Made by a program: the position numbers and the translations under genes. The notes under the pieces are model-generated. The model saw only the letters and a list, made by a program, of their open reading frames with translations, was not told the DNA's origin and did no database searches. Below, piece after piece: positions 1-44,374 of a stretch of DNA of 61,145 nt (positions are counted from its first letter, which is position 1; every line of letters starts with the position of its first letter). The stretch lies in the NCBI GenBank assembly GCA_963847575.1, contig CAWKAL010000027.1:1-61145 (forward strand). The letters are read 5' to 3'. This DNA is from an uncultured Gammaproteobacteria bacterium (GTDB taxonomy: Bacteria > Pseudomonadota > Gammaproteobacteria > SZUA-229).

Positions 1-215
1 CCAAGGAATTTGAAAACCACATCGGCTTGTCGTGGTAACCGGGGTTTATATATCCGGGTTCCAGCGTTTTAGGCGGTGCTTCGGCCGGTGTCTCCGCGTT
101 GCATGCAACAAGCCCGAGGATCAGCAGCAGGCTAATGGTACCCGCCGCCCGGCCGCGCAGGGCTGTGCAAGAAATGAAAGACAGCGGGAATGATCGTGGA
201 TTCATGAACGCACTC
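1..215 (-). CDS. lipoprotein, N-terminal part (gene runs off the left edge)
   Basis: ATG at 215 opens an uninterrupted minus-strand frame to position 1: MNPRSFPLSFISCTALRGRAAGTISLLLILGLVAC-NAETPAEAPPK... It has a hydrophobic signal plus lipobox LVAC. It is absent from the ORF track because it has no stop inside the window. Confidence 0.35.
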
Positions 216-355
216 GTCTGCATTTCTGCTCGTATTTCTTACCTTAGCACCTGCACAGCATTTCGCCACAGGGCAGGAAACCTTAATCACGGTGTGGATG
301 ACCCGGCCGGCACCCATTTTCCAACAGTCCGGCCCTGTTTATTTGACTGAATCCG

Positions 356-4932: not shown

Positions 4933-5969
4933 AGCGGCAGGTGACGATCATTGGCGATCACTTCATGTTGCCCGAGGTATTCGAGGAAAAATTAATTGAA
5001 GCCTGCGGCGCCCAGCTTGATGTAAAGACTCGCAAGGACAACTGGCCTGACGAACCGATGGAGCATGGATACCATAACGGGCAGATGGACGGACTAAAGG
5101 AATATTTCGGCACGCCGGATGACGTTGTCGACTTCATCGGCGATGCACAGATCCTGATTACCCACCTGGCACCGATGTCACGCGAAATGTTTACCAGGCT
5201 ACCGGCCCTCGAGTTGATCGCGGTATCCAGAGGCGGGCCGGTCAATATCAACATGCAGGCTGCCCGCGATCACGGCGTTATTGTTGTTAACACTCCCGGT
5301 CGAAACGCCAGCGCAGTGGCGGAATTCACCATCGGCGCGATCCTGGCAGAGACCCGGAAAATCCGTGCAGGTCATGAAGCACTGCGTGCTGGTGTCTGGC
5401 GAGGTGATCTTTATCGGGCTGATATTACCGGCCGAGAACTCAATGAGATGACTGTCGGAGTGATCGGCTATGGCAACATCGGTAAACTTGTTGTGCAGTT
5501 ACTGATCGCCTTTGGGTGCAAGGTACTGGTCAACGACCCGTATGTGCAACTACCACCTGGTGTTGCTGCGCAGGGTGTCGAGTTGGTCAGTCTCGAAACA
5601 GTGCTGGCAGAATCGGATGTATTGTCGCTACACCCCAGGGTGACGGATGAAACTCGTCGCATGATCAATGCCGATACGTTGGCGAAAATGAAACCGGGAG
5701 CATTACTCGTCAATACTGCCCGTGGGCCATTGTGTGACTACGACGCGCTTTATGAGGCATTGGTACAGGGACAGCTCAGCGGTGCGATGCTGGAAACGTT
5801 TGGCGTGGAGCCAGTTCCGCCTGATTGGCCATTACTACAGTTGGAAAACGTCACGCTGACACCGCATATCGCGGGTGCCTCCGTACGCACAGTGACTTTT
5901 GCTGCCGAGCAGGCAGCCGAAGAAGTGCGCAGGTTCATCGCCGGAGAACCTCCGCGTAATCCGTGCTGA
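4929..5969 (+). CDS. D-isomer-specific 2-hydroxyacid dehydrogenase family, NAD-binding
   Basis: 346 aa. GVIGYGNIGKLV Rossmann motif, VNTARGPL, and TPHIAG catalytic His region. Confidence 0.8.
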   Translation: MKRQVTIIGDHFMLPEVFEEKLIEACGAQLDVKTRKDNWPDEPMEHGYHNGQMDGLKEYFGTPDDVVDFIGDAQILITHLAPMSREMFTRLPALELIAVSRGGPVNINMQAARDHGVIVVNTPGRNASAVAEFTIGAILAETRKIRAGHEALRAGVWRGDLYRADITGRELNEMTVGVIGYGNIGKLVVQLLIAFGCKVLVNDPYVQLPPGVAAQGVELVSLETVLAESDVLSLHPRVTDETRRMINADTLAKMKPGALLVNTARGPLCDYDALYEALVQGQLSGAMLETFGVEPVPPDWPLLQLENVTLTPHIAGASVRTVTFAAEQAAEEVRRFIAGEPPRNPC

Positions 5970-5979
5970 GGACCTGATA

Positions 5980-7500
5980 ATGACCATACAACAGAGTATC
6001 GATATAACTGACGTCATCGTTATCGGCGGTGGCGTCAATGGTGCTGGCATAGCGCGTGACGCCGCGGGCAGAGGACTCTCCGTGATCCTGTGCGAGAAGG
6101 ACGACCTTGCACAGGGCACCTCTTCACGTTCAGGAAAGCTGGTGCACGGGGGGCTACGATACCTTGAATATTACGAATTCCGGCTGGTTCGTGAATCGCT
6201 GATCGAACGTGAAGTACTGTTAAACAGTGCAGCTCACATCATATGGCCAATGCGATTTGTACTTCCTCATAGCCCTGAAGATCGACCGGCCTGGCTGATT
6301 CGCCTCGGGCTGTTCCTGTATGACAACCTGGGCGGACGTAAAAAGTTACCGGGCACCCGTACTCTCGATTTGCATCGTGATCCCGAGGGCGCCGCTATCA
6401 AAGACCAGTATCACAAGGGTTTTGAGTATTCCGATTGCTGGGTCGATGATTCCCGGCTGGTGGTTCTCAATGCCATTGATGCGGCTGAAAAGGGTGCACA
6501 GATTCTGACCCGTACCGCTTGCACATCAGCCCGCCGGGAAGATGGCCTGTGGCACGTGGAATTGCTCAATAAACAGACGGGGAAAAAAAACGTCGTCAGG
6601 GCAAGAGCCATCATCAATGCCGGTGGACCCTGGGTCAATGCGATTCTAAATAACATTGCGGGAACCCATTCGAATCGCAAGGTTCGACTCGTAAAAGGTA
6701 GCCATATCATCGTGCCAAAATTCTGGGAAGGCCAGCAGGCCTACCTGGTTCAGAATAACGACAAGAGGGTAATCTTTATCAATCCCTACGAAGGGGACAA
6801 GGCACTGATCGGTACCACAGACATACCCTACGAAGGTTCACCGGAATCGGTCAGTGCCTCTGACGAGGAAATTGACTACCTGATCAGCGCCGTAAACCGA
6901 TACTTCAAGAATGCGCTGCGCAGGCAGGATGTCGTGGACACGTTTTCCGGTGTACGCCCATTGTTTGATGATGGGGCGGGAAATCCCAGCGCAGTTACTC
7001 GCGACTATGTTTTTGATGTAGACGACGAGCAAGGTGCTCCTATCCTGAATGTGTTCGGCGGGAAAATTACGACCTTCAGGAAACTCGCCGAGCACGCCAT
7101 GCAGAAGCTGGCAAGATTTTTCCCCGATATGGGCAACGATTGGACAAACACTGGTGTGTTGCCGGGCGGTGATTTTCCCGCCGCCGACTTTAACCGATTC
7201 CTCGGTGATGTGATGAACCGGTACCCGTGGTTGCCTCGAGAACTTGCATTGCACTACGCTCGGCTGTACGGAACCAGGGTTGAAAAAATAATAGCAACGG
7301 CGGAGTCAGTGGATGAACTGGGAGAATATTTCGGCGGTAATTTCTACGCCGCCGAAGTTCGCTACCTGATGCACAATGAATGGGCCTGTGAAGCCGATGA
7401 CATCCTGTTCAGGCGTACCAAGCACGGGCTTCACATGAGTGCATCAGAAATTGCACGGTTCCGTAGCTGGATGGAGAATGATCTTGCCAAATCCGCTTGA
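5980..7500 (+). CDS. glpD: FAD-dependent glycerol-3-phosphate dehydrogenase
   Basis: Start taken at MTIQQSIDITDVIVIGGGVNGAGIARDAAGRGLSV (ATG at 5980) rather than the upstream in-frame extension. The GlpD-like length and C-terminal domain are retained. Confidence 0.85.
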   Translation: MTIQQSIDITDVIVIGGGVNGAGIARDAAGRGLSVILCEKDDLAQGTSSRSGKLVHGGLRYLEYYEFRLVRESLIEREVLLNSAAHIIWPMRFVLPHSPEDRPAWLIRLGLFLYDNLGGRKKLPGTRTLDLHRDPEGAAIKDQYHKGFEYSDCWVDDSRLVVLNAIDAAEKGAQILTRTACTSARREDGLWHVELLNKQTGKKNVVRARAIINAGGPWVNAILNNIAGTHSNRKVRLVKGSHIIVPKFWEGQQAYLVQNNDKRVIFINPYEGDKALIGTTDIPYEGSPESVSASDEEIDYLISAVNRYFKNALRRQDVVDTFSGVRPLFDDGAGNPSAVTRDYVFDVDDEQGAPILNVFGGKITTFRKLAEHAMQKLARFFPDMGNDWTNTGVLPGGDFPAADFNRFLGDVMNRYPWLPRELALHYARLYGTRVEKIIATAESVDELGEYFGGNFYAAEVRYLMHNEWACEADDILFRRTKHGLHMSASEIARFRSWMENDLAKSA

Positions 7501-8551
7501 CCAAGCACCCGTAGATTTTCAAGCACTCAGGGAAGTGTCCGCTCGGCTGGGTTCTGATCCGATGCTGGTACAGTCTGCTGGTGGTAATACCTCGGTCAAG
7601 GATGGCGAACTTATGTGGATAAAGGCCTCCGGAACACTACTGGCGGACGCCATGTTAAAAGATATCTTCGTGGCAGTAGACCTACCCCGAATGCACAAGG
7701 CAATAACACAGGGAGATCCGTCAGCAGATCAACCACAGCATTTCCTCGGCCTTTCCACCAGCACCCTTCGCCCCTCGATAGAAACAAGTCTACATGCGGT
7801 ACTCCCGCAGCGAGTCGTACTGCATGTGCATTGCATCCACACACTGGCACATGCAGTTCGAAGTGATAGTGATGAATTACTCAAGGACAGACTCTCGGGC
7901 TTGAGCTGGGCGATGGTCCCTTATACAAAGCCGGGAGCTGAACTGGCAATGGCGGTGAGCGAAAGACTGACGGATGAGACGAACGTTGTCATTCTCAGAA
8001 ACCACGGATTGATCGTATCCGGGGACAGCGTTAAGCAAGCGCAGCAGCTGGTCTACGAAGTACACGACAGGCTTGCCATCACCCCCGCCCCGGAATCGAG
8101 GCCTGATACTGATCGCTTGTTAGACTTGACCAGTAACAGTAGCTACCAGTTACCCGATCATAAACCGGTTCATCAACTGGCACTGGACCCAGCGCGTGTT
8201 GAGCAGGCGACAAAAGGAAGCCTGTATCCCGACCACGTCATATTCTGCGGCATTGCGGCCAGTACACTGCCAGGATCCGAATCTCTCAATGAGTATGAAC
8301 ATCGCCTGGCCCAGGACCAGCAAAAGCCACCCGTATTTCTGATTATTCCAGGCGCCGGCGTTGTGATACGCAAGGATGCGAGCAGCGGCGCACTGGCCTT
8401 GATACGCTGTCTTTCGGACGTGCTGGCACGAGTCCCCGGAGACGCAAAACTGTCTTATCTCAGCCATGAACAAAATAGCGAACTGCTTGACTGGGATGCG
8501 GAAAAGTACCGGCAGTCACTAAATTTGGCACAGAGCAAGATAGAGTATTAA
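7478..8551 (+). CDS. class II aldolase/adducin-domain protein
   Basis: SAGGNTSVKDG..WIKASG, LHVHCIHTLA and ILRNHGLIVSG motifs. Start chosen at MILPNPLD (7478), overlapping the glpD stop. Confidence 0.6.
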   Translation: MILPNPLDQAPVDFQALREVSARLGSDPMLVQSAGGNTSVKDGELMWIKASGTLLADAMLKDIFVAVDLPRMHKAITQGDPSADQPQHFLGLSTSTLRPSIETSLHAVLPQRVVLHVHCIHTLAHAVRSDSDELLKDRLSGLSWAMVPYTKPGAELAMAVSERLTDETNVVILRNHGLIVSGDSVKQAQQLVYEVHDRLAITPAPESRPDTDRLLDLTSNSSYQLPDHKPVHQLALDPARVEQATKGSLYPDHVIFCGIAASTLPGSESLNEYEHRLAQDQQKPPVFLIIPGAGVVIRKDASSGALALIRCLSDVLARVPGDAKLSYLSHEQNSELLDWDAEKYRQSLNLAQSKIEY

Positions 8552-9517
8552 AGGGTAAATATTGCATCCCACGTGGTCTGGATGGGGGCTCTCAAATGTG
8601 CCATCACCATCCTCGTCGACTTCCAATTGCACATTGACTGAATCCAGCACGGTGATTTTTTCCTTCGAGCTGTCAGCGCCTGTGACTTCCATTACGCCGA
8701 CTGTAGCGTTGTTGGTATCTGTGCCTGCAAGGAAACCAGAAAACCGTCATTGTGGACATGAAATCGACTGAACCACCGATTTCCTGGCTTGAAATCGTAC
8801 CACTGGAATCCTGCGAATATGCTGGCATAGCGGGATTTGTAAAATCAAAGTTTGTGATTGCATCAAAACTGGATAATGTGCCAAAGTCGCCGGAAACCAG
8901 TTCCGAATAATCGAGAGTTGCTATTTCTACCTGGTTGGTAACATTGACACCATTATCGGTGCTGATAGTAAAAGTTGCACTGCCATTGATCGTCGTGGTT
9001 TCACCTGGCTGGGCAGTAGACAGATCGGTTGAAACAACCTCCAGGGTCAGTGAATAAGGTGGCTGCAGACTGCCAGTCAATTCCTGAACCGTCAGATTCA
9101 AGGTACCTCCCAAGGTAATCCCGTCAAGCTCCGCACAACTTTCATAATCGACCAAAATTGTTCCCCGACCGCCAAACTGCTGAGCGTTGGATCGGCGACA
9201 TCACCGGACAATGTCTGAGTGCCACTGACTCCACAACCAGTTGCCGGAAGCGTGATAACCGCGCGCGCTTGTAGAAATGAAGCGCTATTAACCTGCGGGC
9301 TCAGCAACTCTACTATCGAGCCCAGTCTCTGGGAGAACTCCCCAACGAGCCTGACGGTGGTCATTACCGCACTGGCGACGTCTACGGCGTTATCTTGCGT
9401 AATCTTAACTGTGGTGTCTGCGCCACCATCGTCATCACTACTACTGCTGCACCCACTGAACCCGATACTCATTGTAATCAATCCCACAGAGAGAATGATT
9501 TTTCTAGATGGCTTCAT
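8548..9517 (-). pseudogene. secreted lipoprotein of unknown function, split over three frames (3' end uncertain)
   Basis: MKPSRKIILSVGLITMSIGFSGC lipobox at the 5' end (ORF 9098-9529). It continues in ORF 8673-9155 and then in a third frame (GFLAGTDTNNATVGVMEVTGADSSKEKITVLDSVNVQLEVDEDGDGTFESP). The second slip lies at the A4 run 8740-8743. Confidence 0.5.
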
Positions 9518-10383
9518 GATAACCCTCACCCCAAATTGCCTAAATTAAACTGTTTATTCTTATTTGAATATACGCTTATGAGAGTGTTCTTCGTGTTGAC
9601 CTGAGTCAATTGGAAATTCACTTACTAATACAAGCCTGGTAGTCTTAAACCAGGCGTCAGATATCAGTGGCCGTTCTCCGTAGCCGAGGATGTGCTTGAG
9701 GTTACCGCGCGCAGCAGTGCTGGCAAAGAGACACGGACGGCTACACCATCCAGATGATCAAACCAATGGCTAACCAGAGCAGGAGGCTCAAACACAAGCT
9801 AACGAAAACACCCCTTGCCGCGCGCAGATCGTCTTGGAGTTCGATGTTCTCACCGACCTCGTCGCTATCGGCTTGCGCGTTCTTCGCCATCAGAATCGGC
9901 TCTAACACAATCATCAATTCCCTTTAGCAATAAACGGGAGGTGCGTACCCACTTGAGTGAGATTAATTTTCATACGCTACTACTTAGTAGTTTTGCATTG
10001 ACTGAAATCCTCTTCAACTGCACACCAGGATAGTCGCTGCCCTAAGTGGACCGGAAACTCTCACAGTCACGTCCATAAGATTGTGTTACCGGAACCCAAA
10101 GATTACCAGCTTGGTTCCCATGTTCAATCATAACCAACTCTTCAGCGAGATCGATAGTTACAATCGATAGTTCAACATTACTTGTCGACATCTCAACTGA
10201 CGATCACTGTTAATACCACTATTCCAGCATCATTAGCAAACATGAGCCATATGGCGCCATGGCAGTCAAATTGCCATCACGCTTCATGACATAACAATGA
10301 CACTCATGTGCAAGGATACTACCCGCGCGAATAACCCATCTTATGGCACACTTTTATGACGCACATGTTACTGAAATTGATGA

Positions 10384-11257
10384 CTACTGCTGTTCTCCAG
10401 CCTTACCCGCTTTCAGTATGAAAGTGGTGCCCCATGTATCGATGACAATACTACCCTCCAGTTGCGTATTGCCCTGAGCCACCAGGTCCTGCAAGGTATC
10501 GACCCGCCCGACTGATTCTGCCCATACGGCACGCGTAGCGGGCGAGTTCGCATAGTCCAGAACGCGCCTGCGTTGGCTGAGGAATTCGCTGTTCCACTCT
10601 TGTTCGCTGACTGTTGGATCATTCAGCACCGCGTTAGTCCGCTGGACAAGAGCGGGCAGCCCATCCGGATCGGGACCAAAGCCATGCTGAATCACAGTGT
10701 CATAAAGAATCAGCAACGTCAGTGGCTGTGTAGCTCCTAGCTTGCCGCTGTATTCAACCGCCCGATTGTAGTAAAGCGTATCAACCACCTCATCCTGGAT
10801 CTGATCGAAACAGCGCATCACCGGTGGCGATTTCCCACGCTGAACTCAGACCCGCCAGCGCACGGGTATCTGAACTTCCACTCCTGGCCAGTGACTTCAA
10901 TGACTTCAGAAACGGCTCCAGCACATTGCCGGGTGCCTGTTTGCTGTACAGCAATACCACTTCGTACATATCACCCGTGGCCGACGTAAAACCTGCTCGC
11001 CCGGCTGTAATACCTCGGCCGTCATCCAGCTCCTCTGCATAACCGTACTGCAAAACAGGTGTATTGTTCTCGAACACACTGATTATCTGGTCGGCAATCT
11101 GGCGCTGCGTCTCGGTAAACCGTACGCCCGGTGGACTCATCTCACTCGAGCATGCCGTACTTGCATACACGGCCAGCAGCACTGCGATAATACAAGCAAC
11201 CGTTCTGATTGAAGTTTCCCTGACCAGGAAACTTCCGAGCGAGAAACCCGAAGCCAT
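10384..11257 (-). pseudogene. GH46-type chitosanase (lipoprotein), one frameshift near 10805-10830
   Basis: N-part: FENNTPVLQYGYAEELDDGRGITAGRAGFTSATGDMYEVV. C-part: LYYNRAVEYSG..LILYDTVIQHGFGPDPDGLPALVQRTN ... RVDTLQDLV. These are colinear with the GH46 chitosanase core as I remember it. Signal with Cys (YASTAC). Confidence 0.75.
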
Positions 11258-11264
11258 TTGATTC

Positions 11265-12221
11265 TTATCGCTCGGAATCGATATCGGCAATTTCAATACT
11301 CTCGGGTGCAGGACTGGTAAGCACAGAACGAGTCAGCACCCCACCCTCGCCAACCTCGAGCAACACCGGGGCATAACGAGCATATAGCCCGGCATCCGCC
11401 GGTTTACCGGTGATAACGGCATCCCTGAATCGCCACCAATCGGCCATGCTGCCGACGGTGTCCACATACACCTCGTCATCCTCAGAGACGGTTCTAGCCA
11501 GATACTTTGTCACCTCGAACAGCTCTATCTGATCCATGAACTGTGTATGCAAACTAAAGCTGAACAAGCTATGTGCTTCCCGAATCCAGTCCAGTTCATC
11601 CTGCATGCGGGCAATCGACTTTTTCTTGCCGAGTTTCAGATCGTGCCACAGGTAGAAATCATCGGTGATGCCACGAGGAAACGACACGATGGATTTGTCA
11701 TGCCCCACCGCTCGCTTGATATGTGGTACCTGTGTCACCGTGGAGTTTTCGGCAAACAGGTGCGTCAGGCCGACATTCGCCATGGCCGAAAGAGTATTGG
11801 CGTCATGCGCCTCGGTTGGTGGCCTGAAGCCTGTGGGAACTTGTCCGGTGATTTCCGCAACTACCTTCATGCAGCGCGCCAGTCGCTCTACCTGCCCCTC
11901 CAGCGAATAGCGGGGCATGATGTCATGACTGTCACCGTGACAGGCCATTTCACCGGTCCTGGCCAGTTCACGGGTAATGGCTCGATTGTTGTTGGCCAGG
12001 TTCGACAACACATACCATGTAATCGGCAGTCCCAGTTCACCAAAGAAATCGGATACCTCCCTGGCATTTTGATAACCATCCTCGGTATCTTCTTCAAAGA
12101 AGGCGGCGTAACGTCGTCCCTCGGGCCACGTGGCTAATCCACTGAACTGCTGCTCGGTACCATAACGCACGATACCCGCCAGCAGGCTATCGAAACGTGC
12201 TTTTTCATCACCCTCCATCAT
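11265..12221 (-). CDS. polysaccharide deacetylase (NodB-homology) family protein
   Basis: 318 aa. MACHGDSHD (HxxxH-type metal motif), FRPPTEAHD, an acidic EEDTEDG segment in place of TFDD. No signal peptide is visible. Confidence 0.7.
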   Translation of the reverse strand: MMEGDEKARFDSLLAGIVRYGTEQQFSGLATWPEGRRYAAFFEEDTEDGYQNAREVSDFFGELGLPITWYVLSNLANNNRAITRELARTGEMACHGDSHDIMPRYSLEGQVERLARCMKVVAEITGQVPTGFRPPTEAHDANTLSAMANVGLTHLFAENSTVTQVPHIKRAVGHDKSIVSFPRGITDDFYLWHDLKLGKKKSIARMQDELDWIREAHSLFSFSLHTQFMDQIELFEVTKYLARTVSEDDEVYVDTVGSMADWWRFRDAVITGKPADAGLYARYAPVLLEVGEGGVLTRSVLTSPAPESIEIADIDSER

Positions 12222-12457
12222 CGTGCGAAGGGTTCACACGCTAACTCCTGAGACCTACAAAGGGGCCGCCAATTGCATCCAGCGCACGGCACAGGTGCGA
12301 CAGATTGCGGGTTACTGTGCTTCGATTCTCCCCGATAGGGATGAAACCCGGGGTAGCTGCCGTCGGGGTCTCGTTTGATCTTGGCTTGGCGGCGGTGGCG
12401 GATGAGCCGACTGGCGGCGGCTATGTCGTTGTCGTTTACAAAACAAGCGTCTGGCAT
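12218..12457 (-). CDS. hypothetical small basic protein
   Basis: AGGAGG lies 6 nt upstream of the ATG at 12457 (MPDACFVNDNDIAAASRLIRHRRQAKIKRDPDG...). The stop overlaps the deacetylase start in an ATGA. Confidence 0.3.
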   Translation of the reverse strand: MPDACFVNDNDIAAASRLIRHRRQAKIKRDPDGSYPGFHPYRGESKHSNPQSVAPVPCAGCNWRPLCRSQELACEPFAR

Positions 12458-12544
12458 GTGGGCCTCCTGAGTCTCTTGTGCCGACGCCATTCGTCAGCTA
12501 CATTCGAACGTCACGGACTCCCGTACCCTAATCAGAATCTCAAC

Positions 12545-12570
12545 GCCCTCGTTTTCGAGGGCTTCTTTTT
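12545..12570. terminator. GC hairpin with T tract (orientation ambiguous)
   Basis: GCCCTCG-TTTT-CGAGGGC followed by TTCTTTTT on the plus strand. It sits immediately 3' of the minus-strand ORF ending at 12572. Confidence 0.35.
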
Positions 12571-12571
12571 G

Positions 12572-12905
12572 TCAGCCAGCTGCAGCGATCACGTTAGCCA
12601 GCGCGACGTGCTTATGTTCACCGATCTTTGCTCTTGCCGTCAGCATCAACACGGCAAAGGCCGAATGCTCGTCACCGAAGACTTCCAACAGGTTGTTCTG
12701 AGTCTCTTCGTCCAGCTTGGGCATGCTGCGGTTCAGAACAGTGACGCATGCGCGCACGACCTCCATGTCATGCTCGAGCATGTTCGCCACACTTGGAGAG
12801 AGCCCGAAGTGCGTCAGTGGCTGAGATGAACGGGTCGTTGTCAGCAGCTGGCGGTGGTGGGCTCACTGTCGGACGCAGCTCAAAGACGTTGCTCGTGGTG
12901 TTCAT
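12572..12905 (-). pseudogene. hypothetical protein, frameshifted near 12775-12790
   Basis: AGGAG lies 8 nt upstream of the ATG at 12905 (MNTTSNVFELRPTVSPPPPAADNDPFISATDALRAL). The reading continues in ORF 12572-12790 (ANMLEHDMEVVRACVTVLNRSMPKLDEE...). Confidence 0.35.
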
Positions 12906-12930
12906 TGTTGTGCTCCTGAAAGTAGTGTTC

Positions 12931-13222
12931 TTATTTGGGTTCTTCTTTTCTCTGTGCTCGTAAAGCACATACGACGACTGCGAGTAAAGCAGTGCTAACT
13001 CCCAAATGCTCCATGCCTCCTTGGCCAAGCCCTCCACCGTCATTTCCTCGAGAACGTCGTCGCAGCAAAGAAGTAGCTTTGTGACTCGATCACGAAGCTC
13101 ATACATATTATTGCTCAACCCCGACATTTCATAGATTCCGAGTCCCAATTCCCTCGCAGGCTCCGCAGATAGGCGTCGATGTTGACAAGCCCCTCACAGG
13201 CGCCCAACAGCTCGTTGACCAT
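12931..13222 (-). pseudogene. hypothetical protein, frameshifted; ends uncertain
   Basis: ATG at 13222 (MVNELLGACEGLVNIDAYLRSLRG) slips into the frame of ORF 12768-13148 (LGLGIYEMSGLSNNMYELRDRVTKLLLCCDDVLEEM...). An alternative-frame TAA lies at 12931. Confidence 0.25.
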
Positions 13223-13337
13223 CTTGCGACCCCTTAGCGAAATTGAAGACTGTAAAGCCCCTCCGCGATCCAAAGCAGTCGAAGTTCAATGCTGTCGCCG
13301 GGTGTGTCTACCTGCAGCGGCTTGGTTGCGATTGCGC

Positions 13338-13836
13338 TCACGGCGTACCTCCGTTCTCAATAATAGGTTGTTCCGTTGCCGCTGACGATAACAAAGTCAA
13401 CTGCTCGATGGCCTCCCACGGCGTGGTATCGGGAAAACGCACCTGCAGCATAGCCAAGGGCACTTTCATTCGTCGGGGGGCAAGTCCGATGAAGACACTC
13501 CAGTCCTCTTTCAACCCGTTGTGCCACTCCTCAAGCACGGCCTCGACGTCCTCCTCACTGCCCTCAAACTGCCAGATGCCCAGCTCTCTGACACGTACCT
13601 GGGCTCTGCGCTCCCGATGCTTGGTTGAATGCCGACACGCCCTGTAGGCGCCTCTTAGCGACTGCCACGCTTGCGCAGGCAGGCTATCTACCCAGTCAGC
13701 AACAGCAGAGGCGTCATCCCAGCGTGCTCGCGCAGACCCGCCAAGACCGAGACACCACGTCCGTGCTGGATGTGCCGTCATTGATTGCTTGGCTGAGCAG
13801 GTCGATTGCGTCCTGGATGCGGTTGTCTGTTCCCAT
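13338..13836 (-). pseudogene. hypothetical protein (about 166 aa), frameshifted near 13750
   Basis: Strong RBS AAAGGAGACGATC-ATG at 13836 (MGTDNRIQDAIDLLSQAINDGTSSTDVV). The reading continues in ORF 13338-13781 (..WDDASAVADWVDSLPAQAW...IWQFEGSEEDVEAVLEEWHNGL). Confidence 0.35.
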
Positions 13837-13847
13837 GATCGTCTCCT

Positions 13848-14182
13848 TTAAAGTCTGAGCTGTTTCGCGGCAGCATGGGTTTGTTGGGTGATGTAGTCGC
13901 CCAGCGACTGGCCGTTCTTCTTGGCGACGTCTCTCAGTCGCTCAGCGGCGTTGGCGCTCAAGCTGGCACTGACCATCCCAGTGCGTGGCCCCGAGGGCAC
14001 CTTTACCACGCCTTTCTCGAGCACAAACTCGTATGCCCACAGCCGAAGCATGTCAGGCATTGTGATGCCGCGTGCCTCGGCGACAGCAGCCAGTAGGTCG
14101 GCGGTGCGTTCAGTGACCCGTGCCGACACCGTGGTGTCACGTTTCTCGCGAATGAGTTGGACGCGATCGCTAGCGGGTCCAT
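13848..14182 (-). pseudogene. tandem ribbon-helix-helix (CopG/Arc-like) DNA-binding protein, frameshifted near its 5' end
   Basis: Two beta-strand-plus-helix units: TTVSARVTERTADLLAAVAEARGITMPDMLRL and GMVSASLSANAAERLRDVAKKNGQSLGDYITQ. The ATG at 14182 is coupled (TGATG) to a 37-codon upstream ORF. The track ORF uses the GTG at 14129. Confidence 0.5.
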
Positions 14183-14275
14183 CAGTCCTCCTCGGCGGCC
14201 ATCATCACCAGAGACATTCGGGCAAGCTCTGCCCGGGCGGCTTCTTCGGCGGCTTCGCCTACTGTCTTCGCGGCA

Positions 14276-14476
14276 TTATCCAGCTGGAACCCCATCACGC
14301 TTACCCCCACTGCCGCGTTTTCGGCCGTAACGGTCGCTCCATGCTTGGTTGATCATTTGTTCAACCAGATCGGCTTGGGACATGTCGCCGCGTTCGGCCA
14401 GTTTTCTGGCTTTTTCAGCGTGCTCCGGTGAAATTTTTGTATTGAACGCCCGGGTGCGTATGGCCTTTCTAGGCAT
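14276..14476 (-). CDS. ribbon-helix-helix (CopG/MetJ/Arc-type) regulator
   Basis: 66 aa: RAFNTKISPEHAEKARKLAERGDMSQADLVEQMINQAW. First gene of the leftward operon, directly abutting the operator region. Confidence 0.55.
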   Translation of the reverse strand: MPRKAIRTRAFNTKISPEHAEKARKLAERGDMSQADLVEQMINQAWSDRYGRKRGSGGKRDGVPAG

Positions 14477-14494
14477 TGGGTTTCCCTTCGTGTT

Positions 14495-14580
14495 GTGTCT
14501 AGTAGATATGCTAGCACTATTTTTCGCAAATCGATGTGCTTCTTATTGACTGCTAGCAGAATCGCTAGTATTGTAGTCAG
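14495..14580. promoter_or_regulatory. divergent switch region: sigma70-like promoter with palindromic operators
   Basis: TTGACT (14546-14551), a 17-nt spacer, then TATTGT (14569-14574) reading rightward. The perfect 8-bp palindrome TGCTAGCA occurs twice (14509-14516 and 14551-14558), plus CGCTAGTA within the spacer. Confidence 0.45.
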
Positions 14581-14604
14581 GCAATCGCATTAGGAGACCG
14601 CGAA

Positions 14605-14900
14605 ATGCCAACTGTAACTCACGACTATCACATGACGCTGGCCGAGGTGGCCCGAGAAATCGGTGTCAGCCCAGCACGTGTGGGCAAATCGAACGGGTCG
14701 CACTGAACAAACTGCGCATCAACGCGAGGGCGCTTGGCCTCCATGTTGAGGATGTGTTCCTCGAACTCGGCCGCGAAAACGGGGGGTTCGATACGAGCAC
14801 TAAGCAACGCATGCTTCTTATTGATGCACTCATCGTTGCCGCACAAGCGATGCTGCTTGCAGCGGCGTACTTCGCCGGCTTCCACGCTGCATTGAATTGA
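14605..14900 (+). pseudogene. sigma-70 region-4-like HTH protein, frameshifted near 14685
   Basis: AGGAGA RBS 7 nt upstream. MTLAEVAREIGVSPARVG, then in the next frame QIERVALNKLRINARAL, which together form the classical region-4 HTH signature. The antisense 85-aa ORF is judged spurious. Confidence 0.45.
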
Positions 14901-14927
14901 GCCCGACTACTCAAAAGGAGACCGAAA

Positions 14928-15164
14928 ATGATTTCTGAAAAAGCACTGGTTGCCCGTATCAACCGCCGACTGGCGCATCGAGGGTTGTGCTTGCGCAAAA
15001 TGCGCTGGCCGACCACCAACGAGCTCGGCGAGTTCGTGCTGGTAGATACCTACACAAACGCCATTCAAGAAACTCATCAAGACCTGTCTTACCTGGCGAA
15101 GACCGAGCACGTATTCAGCACTCGCGATTTGCTACTCGGCAAGAACGAAGGGTGGCGCTGTTAG
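14928..15164 (+). CDS. hypothetical protein (78 aa)
   Basis: GGAGACCGAAA-ATG RBS, nearly identical to that of the preceding gene. Same-strand operon position. Confidence 0.45.
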   Translation: MISEKALVARINRRLAHRGLCLRKMRWPTTNELGEFVLVDTYTNAIQETHQDLSYLAKTEHVFSTRDLLLGKNEGWRC

Positions 15165-15204
15165 AGTCCGTCAAATCGACGGGCACTGGCCCAAGGAGGG
15201 TCTG

Positions 15205-16068
15205 ATGAAAAAGACAACACGGGTACGCGGGTTCGCTGATTGGAAGCCGACGGCTGCTTCAATTGAGGTGGTGGAGCAGATCGACAATGTCCTGGCCCAA
15301 TACCAGCAGCACTTGCCACTGACGCTCCGGCAGGTTTTCTATCGGCTGGTCGGTACTGTTGGCTACGCCAAGACGGAGAAGGCGTACAAAACAGCTCGGC
15401 GAGAAGGCCAAGCGGGGGCGGCGGGCGGGGATGATCGCCATGGACAGCTTGCGTGACGACGGTGTATTGCGCCATGGCGTGACTGCATTCGATTCCGAAG
15501 ACGCTTTCCTGGCCAGCATCAAGCAGCAGGCTGCTGACTTCCGTCTCGACCGGCAAGCCGGACAGGCACAACGCCTCTATTAAGTATGCGAGGCCGGCGG
15601 CATGGTGCCGCAGCTCGCCAGCGTGGGGGCTGACTATGGTGTGGACGCCGTCTCGACCAGCGGTTTCGACTCCGTGACGTTCAAGCACAACCTCAGTCTT
15701 GAGGCCGAGCGGTTGATTATCCTGCACGTGGGCGACCACGACCCGTCTGGGGTGCTATCGCCAGCTCACTGGGTGAGGATGTCGCGGCGTTCGGGCTGGC
15801 CTACGGGCACGACATCACCCTGGAACGGGTAGCTGTCCTGCCGGCCCACATCACCACTTACGGGCTGCCCACGGCGCCGCCCAAAAAGACTGACAAGCGG
15901 GCTTTCGCTGGCAACCAGACGGTGCAGGCTGAAGCCCTGGACCCCGGTGTGCTGGCGCAGCTCGTTGAAGACGCCATCGTGCGGCACATTGATGAGGGGA
16001 TACGCCTTGGCGTAATCGCTGATGAGGCACAGATACGGACCGATCTGATTCGCCGAATAGGCAAGTAG
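15205..16068 (+). pseudogene. winged-helix + Toprim protein (TopoVI-A/Spo11/JetD-CTD-like), with two frameshifts and one in-frame TAA
   Basis: AGGAGGG RBS. N-terminus LPLTLRQVFYRLVGTVGYAKTEKAYK (candidate 5Y-CAP tyrosine). Toprim Glu in VCEAGGM and DxD in ILHVGDHDPSG. C-terminus YGLPTAPPKKTDKRAFAGNQTVQAEALDP. Slips lie near 15385-15395 and at the G4 run 15749-15752. TAA at 15581-15583. Confidence 0.45.
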
Positions 16069-16287
16069 TAAACACTTATTCATGCCCGTTTTATGTACGG
16101 CGGGCACTGCTCAAATACGTGTGTACGTTATGAGTATAACTTACTCATTTCACCCCATTCTGCATGCGCTGAAACGCTATTCATTGCTGTGAAGGTGTTA
16201 CCAGGAAGAAGTGCTTGGGACAAGTCAATTAGTGTGCTACAAAAGATTCAGAGGCTATCGGTTGAGAACATTCTCGAGAGGACAGAC

Positions 16288-16595
16288 ATGAGCAACGAAC
16301 TGCCTAGTTCAATCGCATCGCGGTTCTGGAAGGCGGCACTGGATTCGCTGTGGACGCGCGCGAGGAGACCGCAGTCATTTTGATCCGCAACGTTCTCTGG
16401 CTCAGCAAACAGAAGCTGCCAGCCGCACGCTATGCCGCCAACGGCCGCATCATGTATTCCGGCCGCACGATCCAACACGTTTTTAATCGCATGAACGCCG
16501 GCAAGCTCGATACGCTGCATACGGCCGAGTTGGGCGACGAAATCATCGAGTCGCCAAGCCGCGTAGAACCCGCTGGCCGCGAAGAGGCCGCGTAA
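16288..16595 (+). pseudogene. hypothetical protein, frameshifted near 16365 (strand assignment uncertain)
   Basis: GAGAGGA RBS before the ATG at 16288 (MSNELPSSIASRFWKAALDSLW). It continues in ORF 16350-16595. A 136-aa antisense ORF (16248-16658) competes with it. Confidence 0.25.
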
Positions 16596-16772
16596 TGGAT
16601 TTCCTGTCCCGGGGACGCCGGGCAGTAATGCCTGCGGAGCAAGCAGCGTGAGCTGCACGCCGATGAAGCAGGGGAAGATTCTCGCGCCGTTTAGGCGGGG
16701 AAGGAGTCAAGTATCGATGAGAACGCATGAGGAAATTGTGCGCCGCGTCTGCGGCATTGGGGGGTGGAGAGC

Positions 16773-17301
16773 ATGAAGGTTTATCTGGCCGGGAAAGTTG
16801 ATAAGGCCGGCACTCGCGACGAACCCTCCTGTGGCAGCAAGTGGGACGTGATTGAGCCGCTGGCTGAGTATCATCAGTTCGTTGCTGTGGATGGTGGTGA
16901 GGACTTCCAGCCAGAACACTGCGGCGGTTCCAGCTATAAGGAGGCGTGGCTCGAGGTGTCTCTTGACCCAGGCAATACAAACCCCGAGCCGGCTTTTGCA
17001 TCCGAGAAAGCAGTTGAAAGTACTGGCCGCCTGCGATGCACTGGTCGCCTACCTGGACACGCCTGACTCGTATGGCTCAGTTGCAGAGATCGCATGGGCT
17101 GCTGCAAAAGGGCTTCCCTGTTTGGTCGTGCTACGAGGGGTTCGTGCGGGTGTGAAGTCGCATGATGAGCAGATGGCAGATGCCTACTGGTTCGTTGCGC
17201 AGTTGCCGCATGTGGACGCCGAGGTAGTGGAGAACCGTGACGAGACCGTGGGCGTGATCGCGCGGTTCCTGTCTGCAGTCAAGAGAGAGGCAGCGGCGTG
17301 A
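16773..17301 (+). pseudogene. nucleoside 2-deoxyribosyltransferase-like (SLOG-superfamily) protein, frameshifted near 17000
   Basis: MKVYLAGKV... N-terminus, and ACDALVAYLDTPDSYGSVAEIAWAAAKGLPCLVVL (the family's Glu-containing motif) in the second frame. Confidence 0.5.
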
Positions 17302-17750
17302 GAAGCCAAACATCCCAGCGTAGCCCGCTTTTTGAGGGCACGGGCAGTGCCGAAGTGGAGCGGCTGAATGATGCCATCCTCACAGGGAGTGCTGAGGAAA
17401 TCGAATAAGCAGCGGCATAAGCCGCACAAAATAAGACCCTGCCAAAGTAGCGGGGTCGAGGATAAATACACAGCAACTGTGCAACCAAGCGTGGGGCACC
17501 AGCCGGAAGCGCATCTTTAGGAGCAATGAAATCAAACAGTTTTACTACTCAGGCGTTTCAGGCCAAAAACGATGCATTTCCATTGTAGCCCGATTCGCCT
17601 CTCGACCAAAGTTTTAGAGGTGATTTCATGTCCACACCATTCGGTCCAGACGACCTTAACCAGAAAGAACTGGCAGCCGCACGCGGCGTAAAGCAAGGCC
17701 AGCTGCAGAAGAAGCAGTCATGAGGTTTTGTCGAGTTCAAGCCTGACGAC

Positions 17751-20063
17751 GTGCCGGAGATCATGCGCAGCACACCGCGTTGGTGCGTATGGCGATACAT
17801 ACAGAAGAAAGGCAAGTTGAAGCCCGACAAAGTCCCGTGTGATGCCAGCGGCAAGCTCGTGGGGTATGGCGAGGCCGGGACAATGGCCTTCGACGACGCA
17901 GTTGCCCGCTTCAAATCGGACCCGAACATGTTCGCTGGCATCGGCCTCGCCCTGTCACCAGACGACGACATTCAGTGCATCGACCTGGACCGCGTTATCC
18001 AGCGCGCCGAAGGCAAGGCAAGCATCGCGGACGCAGATGCCGAACGTATCGTCAAGCAGGCGAGGGCAGAGGGCGCCTGGACCGAAATCAGCCCCTCGGG
18101 TATTGGCCTCCACATCTGGGTTCGTGGGCAGTTGTCCGGCAGCCCTTCGTCAAAACAGACGGGGCATAATGGCGCAGTCCTCGAGGCGTTCAGCTCGGGC
18201 CGATTCATCGCAGTGACGGGCAAGCAGTTGGGCGCCACTGGTGGTGTAGTTTACTCACAAGGCCTCATCGACACGACGCTCGACGCGATCAAGCGGCGTG
18301 GTGGCAACGTCACATCAGCACCACCGGCTACTGATGATGACTTTTTCGAAGAGGCCTCGGTTGACGGGCCATCAGCCAAAGTTACTCAGCGCCGGATGTT
18401 TTCAAAGACACCAACAACCTGAGCGCGGGGATTGAAGCGTCCCGGTGGGACTCCCTGCCTGGTGAGGACAAGGACAAACTGCTCGCCATCATCCTCGCAG
18501 CTGCTCCAAAAAAGGCGTGGTTCAACAAGCCTAATGGCGGCGGCATCGACCCTTGGCTGACGTTGCTTTCAGGCCGCAGCGCGCTCGGGGGCTCCTCGTG
18601 CCTACGAGATATTCCGTGCCTTCTCATATAAAGACGGCGACCCGCGCACTGGCTTTAACGAGAGGGAGATACGAAGCCGCTGGCAGAACGCCCTCAAGAC
18701 AGCGGATGACCCCAAGGCAGTCACCATTGGCAGCCTTATTCGCTATGCCAGGGAGTGGATACCCGAGTGGTCCTGGGATTCCTGGGGCCAGTCCAAGCCA
18801 GCTTTGGTACAGAAGTCCACAGGGGGCGGCACAGACCTTTTCAACGAGCCGGCCATAGGAGAGACCCGTACGCCCGAAGAAAGGCACACGAGCCTCTTCG
18901 ACACAGCGAAGCCCCTATCGGTTCGTGACGCCATGGCCCCGCCGCCCCGTGACTGGGTGGTCGATGACCACTTTGCAGCGGGCACGCTGGCCGTCCTGGG
19001 CGGCTTCGGCGGCACCAGTAAGACCATGCTGGCACTGCAACTCGGCGTCGGCCTTGCCATCGCCCACAAGCCGCACAAGCCCTACCACACCGCCCCAGCC
19101 GTGGCCGCAGGGATGGACATCCCCAAAGCTGGCAACTCACTCATCATTCTGGGGGAGGAAGACGCTGGGGAGCGTGACCGCCGTGTGGGGGCTATCCACC
19201 AACACATCACCGAGGGCTATCCGAACTTCGTCAAACGCCGCTACCTGAACCTTATTAAGAAGCACTGCGAGACCATCCCCGCTGCCGGTAGGCGGATTTC
19301 TCTGACTAAGCTGGCGAACGGCAACCTGACCTGGACCCCTCTGGTTCAGGACACTATCGACCGTGCAAAATCCCTCGCGGCCAAAACCGGCAGCCCAACC
19401 CGCCTGATTGTTTTCGACCACGCACGTCTGATCGCCGGTGGGGGCGAACTGAACAGCGCCGAAGACGCCACGGTATTGACAACGGCCCTGACCCACATCG
19501 CCCAGGAGACCGGCGCTTGTGTCCTGCTACTGGCGCACAGCCCCAAGTCCAGCATGGGCGACGCTGGGAAGAACGCCGACCACGGCTCAATCGCACACTC
19601 CACGGCGTTCGTGGACAACGCTCGTGCTGCCTTCGTCCTACGGACGATGGACGAGAAAACCGCCGCCAAACTCGACCTCGGCAGCAAGGACCGACACTCT
19701 TTCGTGCAGTTGATGACGGTGAAGAACAACTACGCCGGATACCAAGAGCACTGGCTCGAGCGAGTCAGCATCTCCAGCCACCACGTCAGCCTGCTGGATA
19801 GCTGGGATGCCCCGATGAAGCAGAAAGACACTGGTCCGTCGCAGCAGGATGTGGCGGACGACGCCATGGCCCGACAAATAGCCAGAGATTTGGTGGCCAA
19901 GTCACCCGGCCGCTGGACGGCCACGAAGCTAAAGGAAGAGGTGAAGGCGCAGGCCAAACTGCCACAGCGCGATGCTAACCGAGTGGTTGATGACATGCTC
20001 GATGGGGGAGAGCTGGCGTCACGGACGATCACTCAGGAGGATCGCAAAGCATACCGTCGTTAG
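17751..20063 (+). pseudogene. fused primase-polymerase (prim-pol) / primase C-terminal region / AAA_25 RepA-DnaB-like helicase, with two compensating frameshifts
   Basis: Prim-pol: RWCVWRY..KPDKVP..GIGLAL..IQCIDLDRV..WTEISPSGIGLHIWVRG..GRFIAVTG. Linker, read in another frame between about 18365-18420 and the G5 run at 18587-18591. Helicase: WVVDDHFAAGTLAVLGGFGGTSKTMLALQLG (Walker A), LIVFDHARL (Walker B), CVLLLAHSPKS. Confidence 0.75.
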
Positions 20064-20208
20064 CCACGACCAAGAAAGGGCGGGTGCTGGAGTTGCCCAG
20101 TATTGGACCGGGAGTGGCCCCGGTGGCCGAGGGAGATGAGGGCGACCTAAATGACCTCGAACTGGAATGAGCTGCCCCCCATCCGGGGGTATTAAATAAG
20201 GACCAGAC

Positions 20209-20240
20209 GGCCGAGGACACCCCTCGGCCTGTTTGTTTTT
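20209..20240 (+). terminator. rho-independent terminator after the primase-helicase gene
   Basis: GGCCGAGG-ACACC-CCTCGGCC followed by TGTTTGTTTTT. Confidence 0.55.
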
Positions 20241-20736
20241 GGCCGTAGAGTGCTAGTAGTTAAGGCGAGAATTCAGCCGTGGTGTGAGTAACTTATGAGT
20301 ATTTTTTGGCCCAAAAAAGGCCAAAATGCTGCCTTTTGCGCCAACGGTAGAATGCGGGCTCAGAAGCATCACGATTTTTGAATTTTTAAAGTTGATTTTT
20401 TAATCTGATGTTTTTGAGGCCTTGCGACGTGAGGAGCTAGAAGTTCTAGTTTATTGTACTTTGAAGTTACTATTTGAGTGTTTATGTTTCTTTTGAACCT
20501 TGAGGCATAAGGGCTCTGAAAAACACGATTAAGCATCACTGAAATTACCTCCCTCTGATGCTTCTAGGCTTTGAGGCATAAGAGTTAAAAAAGAACATCA
20601 AACGAATCGACGTCCCCTTCAGGACGATTCGCGCATGGAGCGCGAAGACATGGCCGCCCGCTGTTGGCGAGGGGACTTGGCGACAGTTCGTTGCTAGTAG
20701 TGAGAAAAAATATTGTATGTATGAATGAGTAAAATG

Positions 20737-20880
20737 TGTTTGGGTGACGTCGTGACAGGGAGGTGGTGCGACGTTATGACAAAGAAGCTGGGTGACAGTG
20801 TGGCGTCATAGCTTGGTGACAGGAAGGTAGAGGGGCAGGGTGACGCCATGGCTTGGTGGCGGTGTGACCCGGTGTTAACA
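20737..20880 (+). repeat. six iterons with (T/G)GGTGAC core at exact 24-bp spacing
   Basis: TGAC/CGAC cores begin at 20745, 20769, 20793, 20817, 20841 and 20865. Four units carry perfect GGTGAC, and two carry GGTGCGAC / GGTGTGAC. The array ends at the ATG of the next gene. Confidence 0.6.
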
Positions 20881-22560
20881 ATGACCCGGTGTATTGGCTC
20901 CGATCCATCGATTCGATTGATGGTGCGCCATGTTCTTGAGTCGGAAGATTTTGATATCATCGAAGCTGCAGATGGCCTGGAAGCCATCAAGGCTGTCGAA
21001 AAACATAACCCGGCATTGATCCTGCTTGATGCCGTCATGCCCGGCCTGGATGGATTTACCACCTGCCAGCAAATCAAGGACAAAGGTTTCAAGGACATTC
21101 CGGTGATCATGATTACCGGCCTGGATGATGATGCCTCTGTCGAACGTGCCTACGAAGTCGGTGCAATCGACTTTATAACCAAACCTATCAAATGGGCCGT
21201 GCTCAAACACCGGGTACGTTCAGTCGTTGCCAAGGTGGTCGCCGAGCGCAAGGTCAAACTGCTTGCCTATCGTGACACGCTCACCCAGTTACCCAATCGC
21301 CTGTTGTTTGCTGATCGCCTTGAACAGGCCGTGATACGCGCCGAACGAAATCGCGAAGCGATGGCATTAATGCTGATTGATCTGGATGATTTTAAACTGG
21401 TGAACGATTCATTCGGCCACGAAGCCGGTGACAAATTGATCAAGGCAATTGGGCAGTTGCTGTCCAGCTCACTACGTCGTGCCGATACTGTCGCGCGACT
21501 GGGTGGGGATGAATTCGCTGTTATTGTAGAGAGTATCGATGATGCCGACGACGCAATTTCGATCGCGGATAATCTCACTACAATTCTCGAACATAATGTC
21601 AAACTCGATGATCAGGAAACCTTTACCAGTGCCAGCGTGGGAATCGCGGTGTATCCCTATGACGGTAAAGATGCACGTACACTTTTGAAAAACGCTGACA
21701 CCGCGATGTTCCGTGCCAAGGAAAAAGGCCGCCACTGTTTCCAGTTTTATAAACCGGAAATGAGTGTGACTGCAATGGAGCGGCTTGATCTTGAAAACAG
21801 CATGCGCCGGGCGCTGCAGAATGATGAGTTCGTGGTGCATTACCAGCCGGTGGTCGATTTACACCGAAATGAAGTCGCTGGTGTGGAAGCACTGATACGC
21901 TGGCAGCATCCCGATAAAGGCATCATTATTCCCAATGACTTTATCCCACTGGCGGAAGACTGCGGTTTAATTATTCCAATCGGTGAGTGGCTGATCAGCA
22001 CGGTGTGTCGCCAGCTTAAACAATGGCATGAAGCCGGTCTGGAACAACATAATGTATCGATCAATATCGGTGCGCGTCAATTCCGCGATCAGGATCTTGT
22101 TGGCCTGTTTAAACGTGAACTGGCGGATAACAATATCGATGCAGCCAATATCACCATCGAAGTGACTGAAAGTACCTTGATCGAAAACGTGGGTGAAGTT
22201 GAAAAAGTGCTGATTAAGCTTCACGAGATGGGTATGACCATATCCCTCGATGATTTTGGAACCGGTTTTGCATCGCTGGCTTATCTAAAGGACTTTCCCG
22301 TAGAAATAGTCAAGATTGATCGCGAATTCATCGCCGGCATTCCTGACAGCGAAACCGACTCGGCGATTGTCTCGGCCATTGCCGGACTGACGCGCGGGCT
22401 GAAATTAAAGTTGCTGGCTGAAGGCGTTGAAAATGACCGTCAGCTGGAAATGCTCAAGGGGCTCGGTTGCCAGCTGGGACAGGGTTTTTACTGGAGCAAG
22501 GCACTGCCGCCCGATCAGTATGAGCAATTTTATCTCAACCGCTTTTATAATCTCGGATAA
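20881..22560 (+). CDS. response-regulator receiver + GGDEF + EAL protein
   Basis: LILLDAVMPGLDG (phospho-acceptor Asp), RLGGDEFAV, EALIRWQHP, DDFGTG. Start taken at MTRCIGSDPSIRLM (ATG at 20881). Confidence 0.85.
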   Translation: MTRCIGSDPSIRLMVRHVLESEDFDIIEAADGLEAIKAVEKHNPALILLDAVMPGLDGFTTCQQIKDKGFKDIPVIMITGLDDDASVERAYEVGAIDFITKPIKWAVLKHRVRSVVAKVVAERKVKLLAYRDTLTQLPNRLLFADRLEQAVIRAERNREAMALMLIDLDDFKLVNDSFGHEAGDKLIKAIGQLLSSSLRRADTVARLGGDEFAVIVESIDDADDAISIADNLTTILEHNVKLDDQETFTSASVGIAVYPYDGKDARTLLKNADTAMFRAKEKGRHCFQFYKPEMSVTAMERLDLENSMRRALQNDEFVVHYQPVVDLHRNEVAGVEALIRWQHPDKGIIIPNDFIPLAEDCGLIIPIGEWLISTVCRQLKQWHEAGLEQHNVSINIGARQFRDQDLVGLFKRELADNNIDAANITIEVTESTLIENVGEVEKVLIKLHEMGMTISLDDFGTGFASLAYLKDFPVEIVKIDREFIAGIPDSETDSAIVSAIAGLTRGLKLKLLAEGVENDRQLEMLKGLGCQLGQGFYWSKALPPDQYEQFYLNRFYNLG

Positions 22561-44353: not shown

Positions 44354-44374
44354 ATGCTAAATACTGAAACAGTA

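Follow-up and report, generated by a model that had tools for sequence, protein, structure and literature searches.

A foreign segment with a Topo Mini-A-type gene, a prim-pol helicase and a candidate origin on a contig from an uncultured gammaproteobacterium

In satellites of the SaPI/PICI type, a pri-rep gene is followed by an origin with iterons and an AT-rich tract, and this module is under divergent repressor control. The alpha protein of satellite phage P4 joins a Toprim (DnaG-type) primase to a D5-type helicase. Topo Mini-A is a family of proteins that free and integrated viruses encode without a B subunit; it resembles the A subunit of type IIB topoisomerases and has no known activity (Takahashi et al. 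2019, PMC7671362). Its members are about 300 amino acids (aa) long and contain the latter half of the 5Y-CAP domain, an R-x-x-(Y/F)-Y motif, a Toprim domain with its glutamate and DxDxxG, and a C-terminal T2BI box, xWELDAL (PMC7671362). The window analyzed in this study is a whole contig (61,145 bases) of a metagenome-assembled genome (MAG) of an uncultured gammaproteobacterium. Its segment at about 12228-20899 encodes ribbon-helix-helix (RHH) and sigma-type helix-turn-helix (HTH) regulators, a Topo Mini-A-type protein and a primase-helicase. We hold with moderate confidence that this segment was acquired horizontally as a fragment of an integrative element of phage or satellite type, that it holds the regulation and replication module of that element, and that two 5'-truncated genes flank it in a chromosomal region specific to the strain.

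Extent, composition and flanks of the segment

Analysis of tetranucleotide usage revealed that 12222-20900 is clearly foreign, although its GC content is lower than first described. The profile of this region has a correlation of 0.65 with the host (syntenic right) part of the contig; host windows of the same size gave 0.925 +/- 0.017. The sliding profile switches composition at about 11.5-12.2 kb and at about 20.5 kb. GC content is 57.3% at 12222-20880 versus 52.0% for the remaining window, with a peak of 0.653 in 300-nt windows and a value of 0.70 in a single 200-nt window; hence the jump to 68-70% GC given in a preliminary description of this DNA was not recovered. A megablast search of the 8.7-kb segment against plasmids and phages gave zero matches, and the searches made found no second copy or relative of the whole module.

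Sequence comparison places the segment at about 12228-20899, between two unrelated 5'-truncated genes and close to the coordinates first proposed for it (12222-20880). The left end was refined to about 12228, and the right end had to be moved to 20899/20900. On the left, the deacetylase open reading frame (ORF; 11265-12221) aligns with its only two homologs, P0201 (441 aa) and P0202 (413 aa), up to position 12227. The N-terminal 145-292 residues shared by these homologs have no counterpart upstream, even at E <50. Judged from these alignments, the deacetylase gene is without at least 145 N-terminal residues and is cut at about 12228.

The right end was fixed by six contigs with an empty site, which supply the comparison with strains lacking the island that the preliminary description had called for. 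The epimerase gene immediately right of the segment has relatives at 90% identity or more on these six contigs, all from other samples. In each of them, colinearity with the window begins at 20901 and extends rightwards (85-97.5% nucleotide identity), and none is colinear leftwards; each carries a 577-aa REC-GGDEF-EAL gene followed by pepN. In the window, the first 74 nt (25 codons) of this GGDEF/EAL response-regulator gene are replaced by segment sequence, and the truncated frame is open from a chance ATG at 20848. The junction is located at a GATC, for which a restriction-ligation artefact was considered, and the two sequences have only CGATC in common at the join. In the longest related contig (L002), pepN is followed by tRNA-Pro(GGG), merR, ihfA and pheTS. 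The tRNA gene of L002, at 9978-10054 between pepN and merR, lies about 3 kb past the point of synteny loss and could plausibly be a hot spot of integration.

No copy of the junction sequence was found elsewhere in the window, and no direct or inverted repeats between both ends rose above shuffles, consistent with the earlier remark that a clear att duplication is absent. One direct match of 15/16 (TGGCTTGGYGGCGGTG; 12382-12397 and 20849-20864) was considered as an att pair and rejected: it equals the best of 200 shuffles, lies at the wrong distance from the ends and is probably due to chance. An insertion site shared with L011, one of the integrase-bearing islands described below, was also rejected; the aldolase II genes found upstream of the two elements are only about 50% identical and belong to different operons.

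The loss of synteny with relatives everywhere left of 20900 would also be expected if the segment were the right end of an island of at least 21 kb inserted in the 5' end of the GGDEF/EAL gene, with integrase and attL beyond the left contig end, for example on the contig that carries pepN. Such an island agrees with the left-part proteins being singletons, with lesions and remnants all along 1-20900, with the integrase that normally accompanies relatives of the helicase and of Mini-A, and with the relatives' tRNA-Pro(GGG) about 3 kb past the break. However, composition changes sharply at about 12 kb, and the deacetylase gene is cut exactly at this change. The composition switch and the cut gene at 12.2 kb thus argue that 1-12227 did not start out as a single unit with the replication module. 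Furthermore, the inserted DNA leaves its target gene unrestored, and the junction sequence is without a copy in the window. We therefore regard a larger island as distinctly improbable, and an acquired fragment bounded at 12228 and 20899 remains the preferred explanation.

Replication and regulation genes

The features of the segment and its flanks are listed in Table 1. Motifs and profiles assign the winged-helix/Toprim protein of the rightward set to the Topo Mini-A family, which is already described. Its match to phrog_6247 ('DNA topoisomerase') has E 1.9e-32, and its family profile recognises Toprim in Topo VI subunit A (1d3y) with E 5.5e-4. Homologs at about 50% identity number more than 2500 and are 289-300 aa long. 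Comparison of nine of them with the frame-corrected sequence (287 aa) revealed R42-Q-V-F45-Y46, E129 and D177-H-D179-P-S-G182 as invariant residues. The lesions in the gene are an extra A at about 15390, a TAA stop codon at 15581-15583 (mostly leucine in homologs) and a lost G at about 15752. No GHKL (B-subunit-type) protein was found near the gene by Pfam or PHROG.

Homologs of the Mini-A-type protein occur on 39 IMG/VR contigs, in integrase-bearing islands and in prophages. One homolog belongs to an island (L092) that also carries a P4-type integrase and a Toprim/DUF927 primase-helicase, another to a prophage (L093), and in a phage fragment (L098) an NrS-1-type prim-pol directly follows the Mini-A gene. 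Among 45 mobile-element loci no conserved multi-gene module was found, and Mini-A and prim-pol were paired in L098 only.

The primase-helicase is predicted to combine three parts. Its N-terminus is a phage-type prim-pol (phrog_13901, 'DNA primase/helicase', E 1.8e-25), its middle matches PriCT_2 (E 1.7e-3) and its helicase part matches AAA_25 (E 1.6e-20). Its three frameshifts, at about 17727 (an extra T), 18370 and 18570, are confined to the first 860 nt, and 18570-20063 is intact. The best relatives are 33% identical in a word-index search and 43% identical in a full HMMER scan; the scan, over 1.84 billion representatives, gave 79 below 1e-30 for this protein, and a helicase scan of viral contigs found no relative. 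By sequence identity, the protein thus branches off distantly; no public sequence that was found exceeds 43% identity. The homology searches with the helicase and Toprim proteins proposed earlier did yield relatives with readable flanks. The helicase relatives whose neighbourhoods were read (33-43% identity) adjoin tyrosine integrases, with AlpA and sometimes a terminase-like gene.

The segment likely carries a candidate origin 3' of the primase-helicase gene. The terminator, AT-rich tract and iterons described there from first reading were all found again, as a hairpin, a stretch of 0.43-0.48 GC (20200-20799) and phased boxes. The AT-rich tract lies 150-450 nt upstream of the boxes, which read KGYGAC, mostly GGTGAC. 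A three-box pattern has four overlapping matches in the array versus 0 in 100 window shuffles, and TGACCCGGTGT occurs twice after the array, at 20865 and 20882. Tandem Repeats Finder misses the array, as conservation within each 24-nt unit is limited to its 6-8-nt head. Rfam gave no match in 20000-21000, even at E up to 1. The GGTGAC(A) box may resemble the complement of the octamer in the ori/crr repeats of P4.

Regulatory genes of the segment diverge from a putative control region at about 14476-14605, with the RHH genes running leftward and the sigma-region-4 HTH gene rightward. The frame-corrected HTH protein scores 29.4 bits for Sigma70_r4 against a cut-off of 24.1; a promoter-like site at 14546-14574 does not score above chance. 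The nucleoside 2-deoxyribosyltransferase-like (NDT-like) protein matches PF05014 at E 1.8e-4 (22 bits, below the cut-off of 28.8) and phrog_355 at E 8e-4, and its assignment is weak and a lead only. The gene order and the domain calls of the preliminary description stand, with RHH_1 marginal and the NDT-like call under its cut-off. No match was found for the 90-aa ORF or the 78-aa ORF (Pfam, PHROG, PADLOC), no credible family match for the 218-aa frame (Pfam, PHROG), and no family match for the 103-aa frame (PADLOC). A JetD-like PADLOC match of the 168-aa protein is weak (E 4e-4) and is regarded as spurious; PADLOC gave no other defence-system match.

By analogy with SaPI/PICI and P4, in an intact copy of the element the divergent RHH and HTH proteins would set the switch. 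The primase-helicase would bind the phased boxes, open the adjacent AT-rich DNA, load itself as helicase and prime synthesis. The Mini-A-type protein might cleave and rejoin the DNA of replication intermediates, and the NDT-like protein might assist DNA metabolism.

Table 1. Predicted features of the segment and its flanks, with the basis of each assignment
Feature	Position	Strand	Evidence or remarks
Left flank: polysaccharide-deacetylase-family gene, 5' end cut at segment start	11265..12227	-	PF01522 E 2.4e-15
90-aa ORF, Cys-rich C-terminus, last of leftward set	12218..12490	-	ORF list
~218-aa frame; frameshift ~12800, in-frame stop ~12573	12497..13148	-	Frame walk
~168-aa protein, HTH-like N-terminus; frameshift near 13720	13338..13836	-	Frame walk
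Tandem RHH protein, 93 aa	13848..14129	-	RHH_1 E 7.9e-4, 19.7 bits vs cut-off 20.5
RHH protein, 66 aa, leads leftward set	14276..14476	-	Weak RHH_1 E 0.027, RepB-RCR_reg E 0.038; sequence pattern fits
Sigma-70-region-4-type HTH protein, ~98 aa, leads rightward set; frameshift ~14683	14605..14900	+	Sigma70_r4
78-aa ORF	14928..15164	+	ORF list
Topo Mini-A-type protein (5Y-CAP winged helix + Toprim, ~287 aa)	15205..16068	+	phrog_6247, motifs
~103-aa frame, frameshift ~16360	16288..16595	+	Frame walk
NDT-like protein, ~178 aa; frameshift ~17015	16773..17301	+	PF05014 (Nuc_deoxyrib_tr), phrog_355
Prim-pol / PriCT-2 / AAA_25 primase-helicase, ~780 aa	17720..20063	+	phrog_13901, PriCT_2, AAA_25
Intrinsic-terminator-like hairpin (8 pairs, 7 GC) + T tract	20209..20239	+	Hairpin itself 20209-20229
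AT-rich tract with short repeats	20290..20600	.	TTGAGGCATAAG x2; AGAAGCATCA / TGATGCTTCT inverted
Iteron-like array: six KGYGAC boxes	20743..20868	+	Exact 24-nt spacing, 20743 to 20863
Right junction	20899..20901	.	Six-contig homology begins; CGATC (5 nt) common with empty site
Right flank: REC-GGDEF-EAL gene	20901..22560	+	Pfam; without REC strand beta-1 and acidic pair

Functions for transfer were not found in the segment. Pfam searches of ORFs and frame-corrected proteins revealed no integrase or integrase remnant anywhere in the window, and tblastn with six integrases gave nothing below E 0.1. Neither PHROG nor Pfam matched a terminase, capsid or packaging gene, and tblastn with a terminase-like protein was negative, in line with the first reading of the sequence. 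Since integrase, att sites and packaging genes are absent and most frames are interrupted, the fragment in the form seen on this contig cannot move or replicate alone. The preliminary description had seen in this gene content an integrase-less small integrative replicon, decaying and of a possibly undescribed type. The lack of an integrase, excisionase or packaging gene between the boundaries fits that proposal, as does a primase-helicase only 33-43% identical to the public collections searched. However, both ends truncate unrelated genes and carry no terminal or direct repeats, and no relative of the whole module was found. Its recognisable parts (Mini-A, phage-type prim-pol, AAA_25, RHH/HTH) are all of described kinds, with relatives in integrase-bearing elements, and the helicase relatives that were read adjoin tyrosine integrases. 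An undescribed replicon type is therefore not upheld, and a self-contained replicon of this kind is extremely improbable. What does hold of the earlier view is that the DNA is foreign and carries a mobile-element replication and regulation module, on the evidence of tetranucleotide usage, domain calls and the contexts of relatives.

Another conceivable arrangement is that the Mini-A, NDT-like, prim-pol-helicase and iteron cassette is a portable unit that is intact in the cell, its lesions being errors of the consensus, and that spreads by microhomology-mediated illegitimate joining without a site-specific recombinase. Joining of this kind would explain ends that cut unrelated genes as well as the 5-nt CGATC overlap. 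We consider it very improbable; were it true, Mini-A would be functionally tied to prim-pol-driven replication.

Frame lesions and reliability of the assembly

Analysis of the reading frames revealed about 12 lesions in the segment: three each in the Mini-A and primase-helicase genes, two in the 218-aa frame and one each in the sigma-type, 103-aa, NDT-like and 168-aa frames. Lesions also occur outside the segment on both sides, including in the syntenic part. The folD gene (57407-58259, -) reads as two ORFs because of a single extra T near 58028 (GAA[T]CAC, non-homopolymer); as folD is a housekeeping gene in the syntenic part, the extra T is probably a consensus error. In a suhB-like inositol monophosphatase gene (49643-50447, -), an extra C at about 49736 (CAG[C]AAC) replaces the conserved C-terminal residues (about 35), and the correct continuation is open in another frame. 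A conserved Tat-signal gene of 505 aa (27874-29391, +), intact in two related contigs (L001 and L007), is spread over three frames by single-base insertions at about 28232 and 29151. None of these four insertions falls in a homopolymer, and the genes that they hit are as a rule indispensable or well conserved.

Frame changes and gene remnants were observed at further places on the contig. A GH46 chitosanase gene (10384-11296, -) consists of two ORFs owing to a one-base shift near 10805, and frame reading of a lipoprotein gene (8594-9517, -; lipobox GFSGC; no family match) points to apparently two frame changes. The left contig end is rich in remnants: 600-3373 holds fragments of an RluA-like pseudouridine synthase on the minus strand and two pieces of MalK-like ABC ATPases on the plus strand, one with the OB domain only and the other without Walker A. 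At 49014-49189 (-), the final 100 residues of a NorD/CbbO-type VWA protein adjoin about 50 N-terminal residues, with an in-frame stop, of a NorQ/CbbQ-type AAA+ ATPase; identified by eye from motifs, the pair appears to be what a deletion left of a two-gene unit. The truncated deacetylase, the OB-only MalK piece and the norQ/norD-type remnant cannot have arisen by base errors.

The first reading had described nearly every gene as frame-damaged and the whole as decaying. The lesions are present, and decay is an unsafe conclusion from them, as syntenic housekeeping genes are also hit; frame lesions shared with folD, suhB and the 505-aa gene are not specific evidence of decay. The insertion bias of the contig (about 13 insertions versus 5 deletions), together with hits in indispensable genes, suggests consensus error. 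Overall, decay and consensus error probably both contribute. Claims of decay that are based on pseudogenes in MAG contigs need read support.

Several observations weigh against a horizontally acquired fragment. Neither junction (12228, 20900) is read-verified, the window being a MAG contig, and neither end shows an att site or terminal repeat. The entire left 20.9 kb is non-syntenic with the relatives, and none of the four left-part proteins tested has a relative at 90% identity or more, a level reached by three of four right-part proteins. A pepN gene (P0026), 98% identical to that of the relatives, is on a separate 7116-bp contig, which is as compatible with mixed strains or a mis-join as with an insertion. 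In a scan of genome contigs with pepN, 58% was the highest identity among the matches listed. To these are added the insertion bias and the single-base insertions that break folD, suhB and the 505-aa gene in the syntenic part.

An assembly artefact would account for much of this. In that case a low-coverage path, chimeric or from a minority strain, would have linked the left 20.9 kb, or the 8.7-kb segment alone, to the chromosome; the lesions would be errors of the consensus, and the element would in reality be intact, perhaps on another replicon or in another organism. The MAG origin of the contig, the separate short pepN contig, the non-homopolymer insertions in folD, suhB and the conserved 505-aa gene and the insertion bias all agree with it. 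So do the abrupt end of synteny with six relatives within a gene, the atypical composition of the entire left part (z between -2 and -16) and the state of the segment's proteins, whose domains are all still full length and which keep every family-invariant residue of Mini-A. However, the two gene-cutting junctions need two mis-joins. Lesions number 0 in the 5.2 kb of 3373-8551 versus about 1.4 per kb in the segment, a contrast not expected from uniform low coverage, and in at least one lesion a stop codon arose by substitution. Truncated remnants elsewhere point to real decay in this genome, and five of seven indels relative to L001 are intergenic, as real divergence predicts. We consider an artefact possible but unlikely, and an acquired fragment of an integrative element is retained as the better explanation.

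Two further regions of the contig drew attention. Two partial copies of the 5' part of the tRNA-Pro(TGG) gene (58829-58905) lie before it, at 58517-58552 and 58610-58668 (the latter with 29.7 bits in Rfam), and a PD-(D/E)XK endonuclease gene comes after it, at 58979-59458. The partial copies may be the scar of another insertion or a duplication. At 42605-47182 (-) there is a run of six small secreted proteins (127-284 aa), four of which (210, 136, 130 and 127 aa) are rich in Gly, Tyr and Asn and have near-identical signal peptides, an unusual paralogous cluster.

Comparison with known systems

This study provides a boundary-mapped mobile-element replication module from an uncultured gammaproteobacterium; its practical value is modest. 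The Mini-A gene in one predicted operon with a prim-pol helicase, beside a candidate origin, is a lead on the role of Mini-A.

Judged from gene content, the segment is neither a PICI nor a P4-type satellite: integrase, att sites and packaging genes are missing, and its primase-helicase is of another type. It resembles SaPI/PICI elements in its small DNA-binding regulators, which from sequence are divergently transcribed, in a primase-helicase initiator gene that has a terminator, an AT-rich tract and short phased repeats (a putative origin) directly after it, and in having no phage structural genes. Unlike these elements, it has no integrase, att sites, or packaging or capsid-redirection genes; its initiator is predicted to be an AEP prim-pol fused to an AAA_25 helicase, and its repeats lie on one side of the AT-rich tract only. 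With satellite phage P4 it has in common a single large primase-helicase with short repeated boxes, its predicted recognition sites, near its own gene. However, prim-pol, PriCT-2 and AAA_25 replace the alpha type, there is no match to the Toprim_3/DUF927 protein of L092, and a P4-type integrase (Arm-DNA-bind_3), AlpA and the sid, psu and delta genes were not found in the segment.

Comparison with NrS-1-type phage prim-pol replicases revealed a match of the N-terminal 170 aa to phrog_13901, 1829 and 3022, and 27% identity with the NrS-1-HBD-containing protein that follows Mini-A in L098. In contrast to these replicases, the C-terminus is AAA_25 rather than DUF3631, and Pfam did not detect the NrS-1 HBD domain. 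The closest helicases (33-43% identity over the whole helicase part) are those of integrase-linked AAA_25 primase-helicase islands (L008-L011 and the contig of P0205), which are small mobile elements of Proteobacteria. These islands encode a tyrosine integrase, frequently together with AlpA, and L008-L010 also have a terminase-like gene. The window has none of these, and the islands are without Mini-A and the NDT-like gene.

The Mini-A-type protein differs from the published family in its C-terminal box, which is TVQAEAL here ((T/W)Q(A/I)EA(L/I) in homologs) versus xWELDAL, and in the three lesions that its gene carries on this contig. It agrees with that family in its length of about 290 aa, in the R-x-x-F-Y motif of the 5Y-CAP domain, in the Toprim glutamate and DxDxxG, and in its mobile-element context.

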